Origin: Escherichia coli
GTDB taxonomy: Bacteria > Pseudomonadota > Gammaproteobacteria > Enterobacterales > Enterobacteriaceae
DNA length: 64,000 nt
Strand: one strand, 5' to 3'
Assembly: GCF_044324875.1 (NCBI RefSeq)
Contig: NZ_CP172185.1
The position numbers and the translations under genes were made by a program. The notes beneath the pieces were generated by a model. That model had not been told where the DNA came from, did not search any database, and worked only from the letters and a program-made list of their open reading frames with translations. This document shows positions 1,320-64,000 of this stretch, piece by piece (within the stretch, counting starts at the first letter, position 1; the number at the start of each line of letters is the position of its first letter).

Positions 1320-4300
1320 TTATCCTTTAAAGCAACGGCGGATCACCACAAAGAACACTGGCACGAAGAAGATTGCCAGCAACGTTGCAGAAACCATCCC
1401 GCCCATTACCCCGATACCCACTGCGTTCTGCGCGCCACTGCCGGCACCGTTACTGATAGCTAGCGGTAATACGCCGAGAATAAAGGCGAGAGAGGTCATC
1501 AGGATAGGACGCAGACGCATACGTACTGCCATTAGTGTCGCTTCAACAACACCTTTACCCTCTTTCTCCATGAGATCTTTAGCGAACTCAACAATCAATA
1601 TAGCGTTTTTAGCCGACAAGCCAATTGTCGTTAGCAAGCCCACCATAAAGTAGACGTCATTTTTTTGATTAAAGAGTGTCGCCGCCAGTAGCACGCCGAC
1701 AATCCCTAACGGCACGACCAACATAACCGAGACAGGAATTGACCAGCTTTCATAGAGTGCAGCAAGGCACAGGAAAACAACCACAAAGGAAATTGCTACC
1801 AGAGCGGGAGCCTGGTTTCCCGATAAGCGTTCCTGATATGACATACCCGTCCAGTCATAACCAATGCCAGCTGGTAATTGTGATGCAAGGTTTTCCATCA
1901 ACGCCATGGCATCGCCGGAACTGGTTCCTGGCGCGGCTTCCCCCTGAATCTCCATTGACGGCAGACCGTTGTAGCGCTCCAGTCGCGGAGAGCCATACAC
2001 CCAATGTGCAGTGGTAAAGGCCGAGAATGGTACCATTTCGCCGTTGGCGCTGCGGACATAAAGTTTATGGACATCTTCTGGCAGCATACGGAATTTGGCA
2101 TCCGCCTGAACATACACCTTTTTCACGCGACCACGGTCAATGAAGTCGTTAACGTAAGTCCCACCCAACGCCGTTGAAATGGTCTGATTGATGTCAGAAA
2201 GTGAAACACCTAATGCCTGCGCCTTTTCCTGGTCAACTTCCAGTTTAAACTGCGCGGTGTCTTCCAGACCATTAGGACGCACGCTGACTAAGCTGGCAGG
2301 ATGTTGCGCCGCCATACAAAGCAACTGGTTACGGGCCTGGGTTAGGGCATCGTGACCCAGCCCAGCCTGATCAATTAACTCAAAGTCGAAACCCGTTGCC
2401 GTGCCCAGTTCAACAATGGCTGGCATATTGAATGGAATGACAAAACCGTCGCGGATCTTGCCCAATTCCATTTTGGCACGATGGATTACTGCTTCCGCAC
2501 TGTTTTCGTCACCACTACGCTCTTCCCACGGTTTCAGACTGACGAAGGCCATACCGGCGTTTTGTGCCTGGCCGCTGAAGCTAAAGCCGTTAACCGTAAA
2601 GACACTTTCAACGTTCGCTTTTTCGTTCTTCAGATAGTAATCCGTCACTTGATCCAACACTTTTTGCGTCCGCTCTTGCGTCGCGCCAGCGGGTAACTGA
2701 ATCATGGTCAGAAAGACACCCTGATCCTCTTCAGGTAAGAAGGAAGACGGAAGGCGTAAAAACAACACCACCATTCCTGCAACAATCAGCGCATAGATCA
2801 GTAAATATCGTCCTGTGGAACCGAGGATTTTGCCGACGCTGTTGGTGTAGTGGTTAACGCTATGATCGAAGGTGGTATTAAACCAGCCGAAGAAACCGCC
2901 CTTATTTTCGTGATGCTCAGCAGAGACGGGTTTGAGCAGTGTTGCACATAACGCTGGGGTAAGAATCAATGCCACCAGAACAGAAAGCGCCATTGCCGAA
3001 ACGATGGTGATAGAGAACTGGCGGTAAATTGCCCCAGTAGAACCGCCGAAGAATGCCATTGGAATAAATACCGCTGACAGCACCATCGCGATACCCACCA
3101 GTGCGCCCTGGATTTGCGACATTGATTTTTCCGTCGCTTCTTTTGGCGGGAGCTTATCCTCCATCATCACGCGCTCGACGTTCTCCACCACCACTATCGC
3201 ATCATCGACGAGCAGCCCGATGGCAAGCACCATCCCGAACATCGTTAGTGTATTGATGGAGTAACCAAAAGCGGCGAGGATGGCAAACGTCCCTAACAAC
3301 ACTACGGGTACCGCAATGGTGGGGATCAGCGTTGCTCGCATATTCTGCAAGAACAGATACATCACCAGGAACACCAGCATAATGGCTTCGAACAGCGTTT
3401 TTACCACTTCGTGAATAGAAAGCTGGACGAATGGCGTGGTGTCATAAGGGTAGAGAACCTTCATTCCCTGTGGGAAGAATGGCTGTAATTCCGCCAGTTT
3501 TGCCTTAATGGCTTTCGCGGTATCGAGAGCATTCGCGCCGGTTGCCAGCTTAATACCCAGGCCCGCCGCCGGTTTTCCGTTGATGCGAGCGATAACGTTA
3601 TAGTTTTCACCGCCAAGTTCAACCCGTGCGACATCTTTCAGGCGTACCACCGAGCCGTCACTGTTTACGCGCAGGGTCACTTTGCCGAATTCTTCCGGAT
3701 TTTTTAACCGCGTTTGAGCAATAATCGAGGCATTCAACTGTTGCCCTGGTAACGCTGGCGTTCCGCCCAACTGTCCGGCAGCGATCTGGTCGTTCTGTAC
3801 CCTTAACTGGTTAATCACATCAACCGGCGTCAATTTATATTTGTTTAGCAGATCGGCGTCCAACCAGATACGCATCGCATACTGTGCGCCGAAAAGTTGT
3901 ACGTCACCGACGCCATTCAGACGGCTAAGCGTATCTTTAACGTTAGAGGCCACATAGTCCGAGATATCGTCCTGTGTGGTGCCTGGGTTATCAGAGACAA
4001 AGCCCGCCACCATCAAATAGCTGCTACTGGACTTTTCAACACTGATCCCCTGCTGCTGTACCTCCTGCGGCAGCAACGGCGTGGCGAGCTGGAGTTTGTT
4101 CTGCACCTGCACTTGCGCGATATCTGGATCGGTCCCAGACTGGAAGGTAAGGGTAATTGTCACGCTACCGGCGGAATCGCTGGTGGAGGACATATACATC
4201 AGGTTATCGATACCGTTCATATTCTGTTCGATAACCTGCGTCACCGTATCCTGCACGGTCTGCGCATCAGCGCCCGGATAGTTTGCTGAAACAGAAACCG

Positions 4301-59908: not shown

Positions 59909-62245
59909 ATGAAGCAAATTCGTCTGCTGGCGCAGTATTATGTTGACCTGATGATGAAGTTAGGTCTGGTGCGCTTCTCAATGTTGCTGGCGCTGGCCCT
60001 CGTCGTTCTTGCCATTGTGGTACAAATGGCGGTAACCATGGTGCTGCATGGTCAGGTCGAAAGCATTGATGTTATTCGTTCTATCTTCTTTGGTTTGCTG
60101 ATTACGCCGTGGGCGGTCTACTTTCTATCGGTGGTCGTCGAGCAACTGGAGGAGTCACGGCAACGTCTGTCACGGCTGGTGCAAAAACTGGAGGAGATGC
60201 GCGAGCGCGATTTGAGCCTCAACGTTCAGTTAAAAGATAATATTGCCCAGCTAAATCAGGAAATCGCCGTTCGTGAAAAAGCGGAAGCAGAACTGCAGGA
60301 AACCTTCGGCCAACTGAAAATTGAAATCAAAGAGCGCGAAGAGACACAAATTCAGCTCGAGCAGCAATCCTCATTCTTACGTTCCTTCCTTGATGCTTCA
60401 CCCGACCTGGTTTTTTATCGTAACGAAGATAAAGAGTTTTCTGGCTGTAACCGCGCGATGGAGCTGCTGACCGGAAAAAGCGAAAAACAACTGGTTCACC
60501 TGAAACCTGCTGATGTTTACTCACCGGAAGCCGCTGCGAAAGTCATTGAAACTGATGAAAAAGTGTTCCGTCATAATGTGTCACTGACCTATGAGCAGTG
60601 GCTGGATTATCCCGACGGACGCAAAGCCTGCTTTGAAATTCGTAAAGTGCCGTACTACGACCGCGTGGGTAAACGTCACGGTTTGATGGGCTTTGGTCGC
60701 GACATTACCGAGCGTAAGCGGTATCAGGATGCGCTTGAACGGGCCAGCCGCGACAAAACGACGTTTATCTCCACCATCAGTCACGAATTGCGTACACCGC
60801 TGAATGGTATCGTCGGCCTGAGCCGCATTCTGCTGGATACCGAACTCACCGCCGAGCAGGAAAAATATCTCAAAACCATCCATGTTTCGGCCGTCACGCT
60901 CGGGAATATCTTCAACGATATTATCGACATGGATAAGATGGAACGGCGTAAGGTCCAGCTTGATAATCAGCCGGTTGATTTCACCAGCTTCCTTGCCGAT
61001 CTGGAAAATCTCTCCGCATTGCAGGCGCAACAAAAAGGATTGCGCTTTAATCTGGAGCCTACGCTGCCATTACCGCATCAGGTCATTACCGACGGGACGC
61101 GTTTGCGGCAGATCCTGTGGAATCTCATCAGTAACGCCGTCAAATTCACCCAGCAAGGCCAGGTTACCGTGCGCGTGCGCTACGATGAAGGCGATATGCT
61201 GCATTTTGAAGTGGAAGACTCTGGTATCGGCATTCCGCAGGATGAGCTGGATAAAATCTTTGCCATGTATTACCAGGTGAAAGACAGTCATGGCGGTAAA
61301 CCTGCCACCGGCACCGGTATTGGTCTGGCCGTTTCTCGTCGTCTGGCGAAAAATATGGGCGGCGATATTACGGTTACCAGCGAACAGGGCAAAGGTTCTA
61401 CCTTTACGTTGACGATCCACGCACCGTCGGTGGCTGAAGAGGTCGATGATGCGTTTGATGAAGACGATATGCCTTTACCGGCGCTGAATGTGCTGCTGGT
61501 GGAAGACATTGAACTGAACGTGATTGTCGCGCGTTCTGTGCTGGAAAAATTAGGTAACAGCGTTGATGTCGCCATGACCGGCAAGGCGGCGCTGGAGATG
61601 TTTAAACCGGGCGAATACGACCTGGTATTGCTGGATATTCAGTTGCCAGATATGACCGGGCTGGATATCTCTCGTGAACTGACGAAGCGTTATCCGCGCG
61701 AGGATTTACCGCCGCTGGTGGCCTTAACCGCTAACGTGCTGAAAGACAAGCAAGAGTACCTCAATGCTGGAATGGATGATGTGCTGAGTAAGCCGCTTTC
61801 TGTTCCGGCGCTAACCGCGATGATCAAGAAATTCTGGGATACCCAGGATGATGAGGAAAGTACGGTGACGACAGAAGAGAACAGTAAATCAGAAGCATTG
61901 CTCGATATTCCCATGCTGGAACAGTATCTCGAACTTGTAGGACCGAAGCTGATCACCGACGGGTTAGCGGTGTTTGAGAAGATGATGCCGGGCTATGTCA
62001 GCGTGCTGGAGTCGAATCTGACGGCGCAGGATAAAAAAGGCATTGTTGAGGAAGGACATAAAATTAAAGGTGCGGCGGGGTCAGTGGGGTTACGCCATCT
62101 GCAACAGCTGGGTCAGCAAATTCAGTCTCCTGACCTTCCCGCCTGGGAAGATAACGTCGGTGAATGGATTGAAGAGATGAAAGAAGAGTGGCGTCACGAC
62201 GTAGAAGTACTGAAAGCGTGGGTGGCAAAAGCCACTAAAAAATGA
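59909..62245 (+). CDS. arcB: Aerobic respiration control sensor kinase ArcB
   Basis: ORF track 59909..62245 (778 aa); two N-terminal TM segments, PAS, HisKA (STISHELRTPLNGI), receiver and HPt domains. Confidence 0.97.
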   Translation: MKQIRLLAQYYVDLMMKLGLVRFSMLLALALVVLAIVVQMAVTMVLHGQVESIDVIRSIFFGLLITPWAVYFLSVVVEQLEESRQRLSRLVQKLEEMRERDLSLNVQLKDNIAQLNQEIAVREKAEAELQETFGQLKIEIKEREETQIQLEQQSSFLRSFLDASPDLVFYRNEDKEFSGCNRAMELLTGKSEKQLVHLKPADVYSPEAAAKVIETDEKVFRHNVSLTYEQWLDYPDGRKACFEIRKVPYYDRVGKRHGLMGFGRDITERKRYQDALERASRDKTTFISTISHELRTPLNGIVGLSRILLDTELTAEQEKYLKTIHVSAVTLGNIFNDIIDMDKMERRKVQLDNQPVDFTSFLADLENLSALQAQQKGLRFNLEPTLPLPHQVITDGTRLRQILWNLISNAVKFTQQGQVTVRVRYDEGDMLHFEVEDSGIGIPQDELDKIFAMYYQVKDSHGGKPATGTGIGLAVSRRLAKNMGGDITVTSEQGKGSTFTLTIHAPSVAEEVDDAFDEDDMPLPALNVLLVEDIELNVIVARSVLEKLGNSVDVAMTGKAALEMFKPGEYDLVLLDIQLPDMTGLDISRELTKRYPREDLPPLVALTANVLKDKQEYLNAGMDDVLSKPLSVPALTAMIKKFWDTQDDEESTVTTEENSKSEALLDIPMLEQYLELVGPKLITDGLAVFEKMMPGYVSVLESNLTAQDKKGIVEEGHKIKGAAGSVGLRHLQQLGQQIQSPDLPAWEDNVGEWIEEMKEEWRHDVEVLKAWVAKATKK

Positions 62246-62357
62246 CCCCGGCTAGACCGGGGTGCGCGAATACTGCGCCAACACCAGGGAAATCTTGGCT
62301 GCGCCGTAAATTATTATGATGAGTTACAAGGGCACAGCACTGTTTTTCAGGCCGCAC
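62237..62357 (-). ncRNA. arcZ: ArcZ (SraH/RyhA) small regulatory RNA
   Basis: Reverse complement of 62237-62357 reads GTGCGGCCTGAAAAACAGTGCTGTGCCCTTGTAACTCATCATAATAATTTACGGCGCAGCCAAGATTTCCCTGGTGTTGGCGCAGTATTCGCGCACCCCGGTCTAGCCGGGGTCATTTTTT, which matches the ArcZ sequence as I recall it, including its terminator; 3' end overlaps the arcB stop codon. Confidence 0.88.
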
Positions 62358-62474
62358 GCAGTTAAGATAGCAAAACTTAAATGATTTGTTACATGAATCA
62401 GTTAAATGTGTGATGCGTAGCATTTTTATTAAAAAAATTAATGTGTTTCAGTCAATTGCGAAAGGATGATCACA

Positions 62475-63128
62475 ATGAAGAAAATTGGCGTAATTCTGAG
62501 CGGATGCGGCGTCTATGACGGTTCTGAAATTCATGAAGCGGTGTTGACGTTGTTAGCTATTTCACGCAGCGGTGCACAGGCGGTCTGCTTTGCACCGGAT
62601 AAACAGCAGGTTGATGTTATCAACCATTTAACGGGCGAAGCGATGACGGAAACGCGCAATGTGCTGATTGAAGCGGCACGAATAACGCGCGGTGAAATCC
62701 GTCCTCTGGCCCAGGCCGATGCCGCTGAACTGGATGCGTTGATTGTGCCGGGGGGGTTTGGCGCGGCGAAGAATTTAAGCAATTTTGCCAGTCTTGGTCG
62801 CGAATGCACCGTTGACCGTGAATTAAAGGCGCTGGCACAAGCGATGCATCAGGCCGGAAAACCGCTTGGTTTTATGTGTATTGCCCCGGCGATGCTGCCG
62901 AAAATTTTCGATTTCCCGCTGCGTTTGACCATCGGTACTGATATCGATACCGCAGAAGTGCTGGAAGAGATGGGTGCGGAGCATGTGCCGTGTCCTGTCG
63001 ATGATATCGTGGTTGATGAAGACAACAAGATTGTCACCACCCCGGCATATATGCTGGCGCAGAACCTTGCAGAAGCGGCGAGCGGCATTGATAAGCTGGT
63101 TTCCCGCGTGCTGGTCCTGGCGGAATGA
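62475..63128 (+). CDS. elbB: Glyoxalase/DJ-1-like protein ElbB (YhbL)
   Basis: ORF track 62466..63128; start set at [23 protein letters not shown] (217 aa). Confidence 0.9.
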
Positions 63129-63853
63129 GTAAAAGCCGCTTAACGGTGTTTAGTTTCATTCGCCGTTTTCTTTTGCGGTTAATGGTTGTCCTCGCCGTTT
63201 TTTGGGGCGGGGGCATCGCGTTGTTTAGCGTTGCGCCTGTTCCTTTCTCAGCGGTAATGGTCGAGCGACAGGTCAGCGCCTGGCTGCATGGCAATTTTCG
63301 TTACGTGGCACATTCTGACTGGGTCAGTATGGATCAAATCTCGCCGTGGATGGGACTGGCGGTGATTGCCGCAGAAGATCAGACATTTCCTGAGCACTGG
63401 GGCTTTGATGTCGCTTCCATTGAGAAAGCCCTGGCGCACAACGAGCGCAATGAAAACCGTATTCGCGGTGCTTCAACGATTTCTCAGCAGACGGCCAAAA
63501 ATCTCTTTTTATGGGATGGGCGTAGCTGGGTTCGAAAAGGGCTGGAAGCTGGATTAACGCTGGGGATAGAAACTGTCTGGAGCAAAAAGCGTATCCTGAC
63601 GGTTTACCTGAATATCGCCGAATTTGGCGACGGTGTGTTTGGCGTCGAAGCTGCGGCACAACGTTATTTCCACAAACCCGCGAGCAAACTTACCCGCTCG
63701 GAAGCTGCATTACTGGCAGCTGTATTACCTAATCCACTTCGTTTCAAAGTCTCCGCGCCATCGGGCTACGTGCGTGGCCGTCAGGCGTGGATTTTACGGC
63801 AGATGTATCAGTTAGGCGGTGAGTCGTTTATGCAACAGCACCAGCTTGATTAA
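63125..63853 (+). CDS. mtgA: Monofunctional biosynthetic peptidoglycan transglycosylase
   Basis: ORF track 63125..63853 (242 aa); N-terminal TM, glycosyltransferase-51 motifs ([23 protein letters not shown]); overlaps elbB stop by 4 nt. Confidence 0.95.
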
Positions 63854-64000
63854 GCTTCGCGCGAAGTGAGGGCCAGCGTTTTGCTCTCACGAGGTTGCAG
63901 ATCTTTCTGCAGGGCAATAGCCAGCGCCGGTTGGGCGATAAATCGTTTCCATAACCGCTCTTGCTTACGCAGACAACACCACTTCGACCAGGTCGCCAGT
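63850..64000 (-). CDS. yrbL: 3' end of a convergent gene, probably yrbL (runs off window end)
   Basis: Minus-strand frame open from window end to TAA at 63852-63850 (hand translation ...[27 protein letters not shown]); K-12 gene order places yrbL convergent to mtgA. I do not recall the YrbL sequence itself. Confidence 0.5.

Follow-up and report, generated by a model that had tools for sequence, protein, structure and literature searches.

Convergent bacterial genes whose coding sequences run into each other form a well-described class. In the survey of Lillo and Krakauer (2007, PMC2174442), the length distribution of convergent overlaps shows a jump at length 4, produced by the four-base sequences CTAA, TTAA, CTAG and TTAG. 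Across 58 species, 672 of the 1890 convergent overlaps were shorter than 5 nt (their Table 2 minus Table 3), and in E. coli the count of convergent overlaps was 58. As that study also pointed out, the terminators of such pairs must sit inside the coding sequence of the partner.

Two further classes are relevant at the level of RNA. Convergent excludons are pairs with overlapping transcripts; ExcludonFinder lists 165 of them for E. coli MG1655, and yrbL-mtgA is named among them (PMC12288877). Rho-dependent transcripts, as described by Dar and Sorek (2018, PMC6061677), have a precise steady-state end that follows a stable stem-loop without a U-tract. Such ends are made by PNPase and RNase II, which trim the RNA back from a diffuse termination site farther downstream.

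Here, we compare the mtgA–yrbL junction of E. coli with these systems. The junction lies near the end of a 64,000-nt stretch of contig NZ_CP172185.1, the whole of which we refer to as the window. It is an ordinary compact tail-to-tail arrangement, one of roughly 58 convergent overlaps in E. coli, and it is already known: both genes are annotated, and the junction has been characterized at the transcript level in K-12.

Geometry of the junction and identity of the two genes

Three features define the junction.

63125–63853, plus strand: mtgA, encoding a monofunctional peptidoglycan glycosyltransferase of 242 aa (open reading frame list, PF00912, and RefSeq in MEI003 and K-12)
63850–64000, minus strand: 3′ end of yrbL, its last 49 codons and stop (translation; the full gene extends to the equivalent of 64482)
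63850–63853, no strand assigned: TTAA tetramer holding both stops, a 4-nt overlap of coding sequences (sequence; annotated in MEI003, K-12 and strain N96)

Read directly from the window, positions 63850–63853 are TTAA. The open reading frame list gives mtgA as a plus-strand frame of 63125–63853, with its TAA stop at 63851–63853. Translation of the minus strand from 63999 to 63850 yields 49 sense codons with no internal stop and then the TAA of yrbL, which is the reverse complement of the TTA at 63850–63852. The two stops have 63851–63852 in common, exactly the 2-nt overlap that a sequence-only reading of the window had proposed, and the coding sequences overlap by 4 nt. Both stops are thus contained in a single tetramer of the YTAR type, with mtgA on the plus strand and yrbL on the minus strand, tail to tail. 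The pair is structurally identical to the published 4-nt class, which is a common one, in which TTAA carries stops on opposite strands.

The same reading had stated that this geometry leaves no room for a terminator. This is literally true, and no intrinsic-terminator-like site is found near the junction either. Since no terminator can fit between mtgA and yrbL, each RNA polymerase must enter the opposite gene.

The gene names given in that reading agree with both Pfam and RefSeq. The MtgA frame matches PF00912 (Transgly) with an E value of 1.9e-53 and 181 bits, against a gathering cut-off of 27. RefSeq places mtgA at 3126–3854 (+) of the corresponding MEI003 locus (L001) and at 3349081..3349809 (−) in K-12. 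The second gene calls for more care, as its frame is cut by the window edge: only 49 of its codons lie within the window, and this 49-aa fragment alone matches no Pfam family. One could therefore suppose that the overlap is an artifact of annotation or of reading, with one of the two frames either unreal or ending elsewhere. The missing match is explained by the profile itself, which covers residues 2–185. In MEI003, which is identical to the window in this region, RefSeq annotates a full-length yrbL of 210 aa at L001 3851–4483 (−), and in K-12 the gene lies at 3348452..3349084 (+). The full-length protein matches PF10707 with an E value of 2.8e-67 and 226.4 bits (cut-off 31.5). Moreover, yrbL contains no indels in 12 orthologues, and its substitutions are approximately fourfold enriched at third codon positions, as they also are within the 49 codons inside the window; against Citrobacter sp. 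NCU1, for example, there are 27, 14 and 109 substitutions at codon positions 1, 2 and 3. The C termini of both proteins are conserved across genera, and RefSeq is consistent throughout. On these grounds we reject an artifact, to which we attach next to no probability. The caveat that came with the sequence-only reading, that the truncated minus-strand frame might not be a real gene, is thereby answered: yrbL continues at full length past the window edge and evolves as coding sequence does.

On its other side, mtgA follows elbB and is the last gene of the series. The TGA stop of elbB (63126–63128) overlaps the ATG start of mtgA (63125–63127), giving a 4-nt overlap, ATGA, at 63125–63128. Codirectional overlaps of this ATGA type are classic and are associated with translational coupling. 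With one 4-nt overlap upstream and another downstream, mtgA is overlapped at both of its ends. The start of elbB itself is ambiguous: the mechanically called frame begins at an ATG at 62466 (220 aa, MITMKKIG...), and the RefSeq equivalent begins at 62475 (217 aa, MKKIG...).

Farther upstream, the ArcZ small RNA lies at 62250–62357 on the minus strand, between elbB and arcB (Rfam RF00081, 120.8 bits). It converges on arcB, whose coding sequence ends at 62245, and so provides a second convergent 3′ overlap in this neighborhood. In the K-12 annotation, the 3′ ends of arcZ and arcB overlap by 9 nt, and a strong Term-seq 3′ end has been mapped where they overlap, at 3350696 (PMC7815308).

Transcript ends and Rho at the junction

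The sequence-only reading had expected the two transcripts to overlap in antisense at their 3′ ends, and had named 3′-end mapping by Term-seq as the way to check this. Adams et al. (2021, PMC7815308) had already reported such mapping in K-12 MG1655, and the expected overlap is borne out in that strain by Term-seq ends, by Rho regions and by the excludon list. All the transcript data considered here come from K-12 MG1655 and not from the strain of the window. The two strains are colinear over the region, with no indels and 25 mismatches in 1501 nt (98.3% identity).

In the Term-seq tables (PMC7815308), a plus-strand, yrbL-sense 3′ end is recorded at 3349181/3349182 and classed as “antisense mtgA.” It appears in the LB OD 0.4 and LB OD 2.0 sheets of supplementary file 1, and the file has a third entry in the 33491xx range, presumably from the M63 sheet. 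This end falls 97–98 nt past the yrbL stop (3349084), inside mtgA, and maps to positions 63753/63752 on the minus strand of the window. We infer that it belongs to the yrbL mRNA rather than to another transcript there. In these tables, no other 3′ end is listed on either strand between 3348700 and 3349299; in particular, the mtgA strand has no discrete 3′ end listed in that interval. A separate 3′ end lies inside yrbL at K-12 3348581 (+), equivalent to L001 4354 and 129 nt into the frame. It is present in both the LB OD 0.4 and the LB OD 2.0 sheets, with a Rho score of 1.2 that is flagged “No” (PMC7815308), and it might arise from premature termination or from processing of the yrbL RNA.

The same study used DirectRNA-seq with bicyclomycin, counting reads over 800-nt intervals, to identify regions of Rho-dependent termination (PMC7815308, supplementary file 2). 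One such region falls on each strand of the junction, and the stronger of them peaks within the window.

63235, minus strand: equivalent of the K-12 yrbL-strand Rho peak at 3349699 (PMC7815308 and coordinate mapping)

On the yrbL strand, antisense to mtgA, the region at 3349699 (+) has a score of 14.6 (p 3.3e-54); reads upstream and downstream were 280 and 21 in untreated cells, and 613 and 672 with bicyclomycin. On the mtgA strand, antisense to yrbL, the region at 3348808 (−) has a score of 3.2 (p 2.3e-5), with 85 and 38 reads untreated and 46 and 66 with bicyclomycin. The latter peak lies 273 nt past the mtgA stop and 126 nt beyond the end of the window. In the published K-12 data, read-through thus increases under Rho inhibition on both strands, which shows that Rho limits read-through in both directions in K-12.

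These counts also bear on another way in which convergent transcription may end. Bidirectional termination by head-on polymerase collision has been reported for convergent E. coli pairs, with a requirement for a stem-loop (bioRxiv 10.1101/2022.10.23.513370). At this junction, collisions whose place is set by stem-loops of the nascent RNA close to the boundary between the genes might then drive termination more than Rho does, and stem-loops are indeed predicted on both strands at no more than 100 nt from the TTAA. However, bicyclomycin alone lifts read-through by factors of ∼15 (yrbL strand) and ∼3 (mtgA strand), and an effect of this size makes Rho responsible for most of the termination. In addition, expression of both genes is weak under the conditions used (tens to hundreds of reads in 800 nt), which should make collisions rare, and no bidirectional terminator element lies between the two genes. 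We accordingly judge it improbable that collisions outweigh Rho here.

Nor do we find a conventional terminator. In a consensus scan, no site resembling an intrinsic terminator came up at distances of up to about 200 nt from the junction. Over the 2.6-kb region scanned, there were three terminator-like sites, against 3.0 expected from shuffled sequences, and the nearest of these lies inside mtgA (L001 3616–3631). An intrinsic or bidirectional terminator at the junction is therefore rejected: none is nearby, the count equals the shuffle expectation, and the hairpins that do occur lack U-tracts. What the RNAs of the two strands do contain is the following.

63752–63791, minus strand: 40-nt stem-loop of the yrbL-sense RNA, lying within the coding sequence of mtgA (predicted fold; the K-12 Term-seq end lies at its 3′ edge)
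63510–63589, minus strand: C-rich, G-poor stretch of the yrbL-sense RNA, a candidate rut (31 C and 10 G in 80 nt)
63866–63890 and 63895–63912, plus strand: two predicted stem-loops in the mtgA-sense RNA, inside yrbL (predicted fold, z −0.78)

The last paired base of the 63752–63791 stem-loop is the mapped 3′ end itself, and the next bases, GACUUUGAAACG, contain no U-run. In K-12 this stem-loop folds with −20.2 kcal/mol (z −2.67). In the strain of the window the corresponding values are −16.9 kcal/mol and z −1.06, with one C·A mismatch, so the structure is predicted to be weaker than in K-12. A 3′ end placed directly after a stable stem-loop without a U-tract is found on the yrbL strand only. 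The C-rich tract, 260–340 nt beyond the stop of yrbL, is flanked by the mapped 3′ end on one side and by the peak of the Rho region on the other, and from its position and composition it is plausibly the region where Rho loads.

The yrbL-strand end therefore resembles the class described by Dar and Sorek in having a stem-loop without a U-run, followed downstream by a bicyclomycin-sensitive region and a C-rich tract. It differs from that class in the place of its stem-loop, which falls within codons of the convergent gene where the class has an intergenic 3′ UTR or a REP element, and in that trimming is here presumed by analogy. By the same analogy, the stem-loop probably serves as an exonuclease-blocking 3′ structure. 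Across 11 sequences, 88% of its cells are paired, and the region also encodes conserved MtgA residues. Covariation amounts to one compensatory pair, in E. albertii, a count equaled by 102 of 500 shuffles. Conservation of the stem-loop is inseparable from conservation of MtgA coding. On the other strand, the two mtgA-sense hairpins occupy positions 13–60 nt past the mtgA stop, have no U-tract and are unexceptional in z; as predicted folds, they are only candidates for a 3′ structure of the mtgA mRNA.

The overlap and its alternatives among relatives

The last kilobase of the window, 63000–64000 (1001 nt), is 100% identical to MEI003 (NZ_CP071263.1), and a further 5424 complete E. coli genomes match it at 95%–99% identity. 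RefSeq shows the identical 4-nt yrbL/mtgA overlap in both MEI003 and K-12. Of 5426 complete E. coli genomes, 5425 match a 126-nt probe centered on the junction at an identity of at least 95%; all the matches sampled were in a single piece and covered the full probe, with both genes annotated beneath them. Even strain N96, the most divergent E. coli match in the sample, keeps the 4-nt overlap. Beyond these strains, TTAA was present, its stops in an unchanged register, in all six of the other Escherichia lineages recovered (E. whittamii, Escherichia sp. E1V33, “E. coli” E69, “E. coli” SCPM-O-B-8794, Escherichia sp. MOD1-EC7003 and E. albertii). Given its presence in MEI003, K-12, N96 and these six lineages, the overlap is inherited and not a chance coincidence.

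The same kilobase of the window is 100% identical to only one of the 5426 complete genomes, MEI003, with the rest at no more than 98.7%, and the elbB–mtgA–yrbL allele of the window strain is therefore uncommon. MEI003 stems from the outdoor surroundings of a veterinary clinic in Switzerland. An example of an allelic difference is MtgA ...YVRGRQ... in the window strain versus ...YVRSRQ... in K-12.

The comparison outside Escherichia is based on 12 loci recovered from one scan of genome contigs, which include Citrobacter and Salmonella but neither Klebsiella nor Enterobacter. Among these loci, the overlap was not found outside Escherichia. The spacer between yrbL and mtgA is 7 nt in Citrobacter sp. 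NCU1, 104 nt in C. amalonaticus and 83 nt in S. enterica subsp. arizonae. Two further Citrobacter, sp. Awk 4 and sp. R56, have an open reading frame of 314 aa between the two genes; it lies directly after yrbL, at the place that mtgA takes in the other genera (about 2242–3186, minus strand, in loci L009 and L010), and looks like an insertion at the convergent junction.

The long spacers have a structure of their own. Those of Salmonella and C. amalonaticus are palindromic, with strong stem-loops on either strand (z −2.1 to −3.2), and by these folds and the REP consensus they look like REP/BIME elements. The junctions in these relatives involve the same pair, oriented alike, and offer stem-loops to both transcripts. 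In contrast, the Escherichia junction has neither a spacer nor a REP. REP-type palindromes between mtgA and yrbL would provide the 3′ stem-loops in those relatives.

The ends of the two proteins show what differs between the arrangements. In all loci of Escherichia, Citrobacter and Salmonella, YrbL ends in ...SREA before its stop. MtgA ends in ...QLY or ...QLD, or in a variant of equal length, with the exception of Citrobacter sp. NCU1, where it is one codon longer. Since these ends are constant across genera, neither protein has been lengthened to make the overlap, and the spacer alone differs. An origin by C-terminal extension after loss of a stop codon is rejected for the same reason, the end positions of YrbL and MtgA being kept apart from the one added codon of NCU1. 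The Escherichia overlap is thus the absence of a spacer and not an extension of either protein.

Two observations on yrbL arose during the comparison. In Escherichia sp. MOD1-EC7003, yrbL (L007 1501–2133) differs from the window allele by 14, 3 and 17 substitutions at codon positions 1, 2 and 3, with 16 amino acid changes. This third-position bias is far below that of other Escherichia lineages, such as E. whittamii (15, 6 and 47), and the last 49 codons are nearly identical to those in the window; the gene may be a recombinant or mosaic allele. Separately, a 420-bp contig assigned to Tannerella forsythia ATCC 43037 (NZ_JUET01000135.1, L014) encodes YrbL residues 1–129 with 98% identity to E. 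coli. It is almost certainly E. coli contamination of the Tannerella assembly.

PhoP control, possible mutual interference and the meaning of the junction

The promoter of yrbL lies past the end of the window and was located in MEI003, which is identical to the window where both overlap. A canonical PhoP box, the direct repeat TGTTTAGGTTTTGTTTA, is found 67 nt before the yrbL ATG (L001 4534–4550, minus strand). It matches the PhoP box of Salmonella yrbL, TCGTTTAGGTTTTGTTTAA, which has been footprinted (PMC3335776). In Salmonella, the yrbL promoter is active in low Mg2+ and inactive in high Mg2+ (PMC3335776). The gene yrbL is PhoP-activated.

This regulation gives some appeal to the idea of a functional convergent excludon, in which transcription of yrbL and that of elbB–mtgA lower each other through polymerase collision or through cleavage of the RNA duplex by RNase III. 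If so, induction of yrbL by PhoP/PhoQ at low Mg2+ would link Mg2+ stress to a peptidoglycan glycosyltransferase. The pair belongs to the MG1655 “excludome,” with detection in half or more of the 58 RNA-seq samples (PMC12288877), antisense RNA over the 3′ end of mtgA is shown in K-12, and the overlap is fixed across Escherichia. Its likeness to convergent excludons is therefore real, in that the published K-12 data contain overlapping yrbL and mtgA transcripts and the pair is listed by name. However, a coverage-based excludon call is nearly automatic when two coding sequences overlap and both genes are expressed. The overlap of this pair comes from the geometry of its coding sequences and not from long 3′ UTRs, and the mutually exclusive expression after which excludons are named is hypothetical for yrbL and mtgA. 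Our literature search found no report of reciprocal expression or of a phenotype for yrbL-mtgA. Salmonella and Citrobacter retain both genes without the overlap. Finally, Rho already keeps the antisense RNA within the 3′ portion of mtgA, as the drop from 280 upstream to 21 downstream reads in untreated cells indicates. On balance, a functional excludon seems unlikely to us.

A more specific proposal is that the zero-spacer TTAA has been selected as a coupling device, such that low-Mg2+ transcription of yrbL, extending ∼100 nt or more into mtgA, lowers elbB–mtgA expression, with Rho setting the reach of this effect. We consider such selected coupling quite doubtful. Fixation across the genus is compatible with neutrality, and selection for an excludon would give the same pattern.

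We instead favor, as the probable account of the whole, an ordinary spacer-less junction with Rho-limited read-through, a yrbL RNA trimmed to a stem-loop, and no dedicated function. The genes mtgA and yrbL converge without a spacer, and each polymerase has to continue into the other gene. According to this account, Rho would load on the untranslated antisense RNA, on the yrbL strand perhaps at the C-rich tract, and would terminate transcription diffusely. Exonucleases acting 3′ to 5′ would next shorten the yrbL RNA as far as a stem-loop that the mtgA codons happen to encode, and the mtgA RNA would be left without a sharply defined 3′ end. The overlap itself would be a by-product of the missing intergenic spacer in the Escherichia lineage, and not a dedicated regulatory device.

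Taken by itself, the junction is of little importance: it is a textbook-style case of two convergent genes without a spacer, and it would be of modest interest only if the overlap ties the PhoP/Mg2+ response to mtgA expression. Since its annotation, Term-seq, Rho-inhibition data and comparative sequences are in full agreement, it could be used as a worked example. What it illustrates is that, at a spacer-less junction, termination and 3′-end formation shift into the coding sequence of the neighbor, and Rho polices the antisense read-through.
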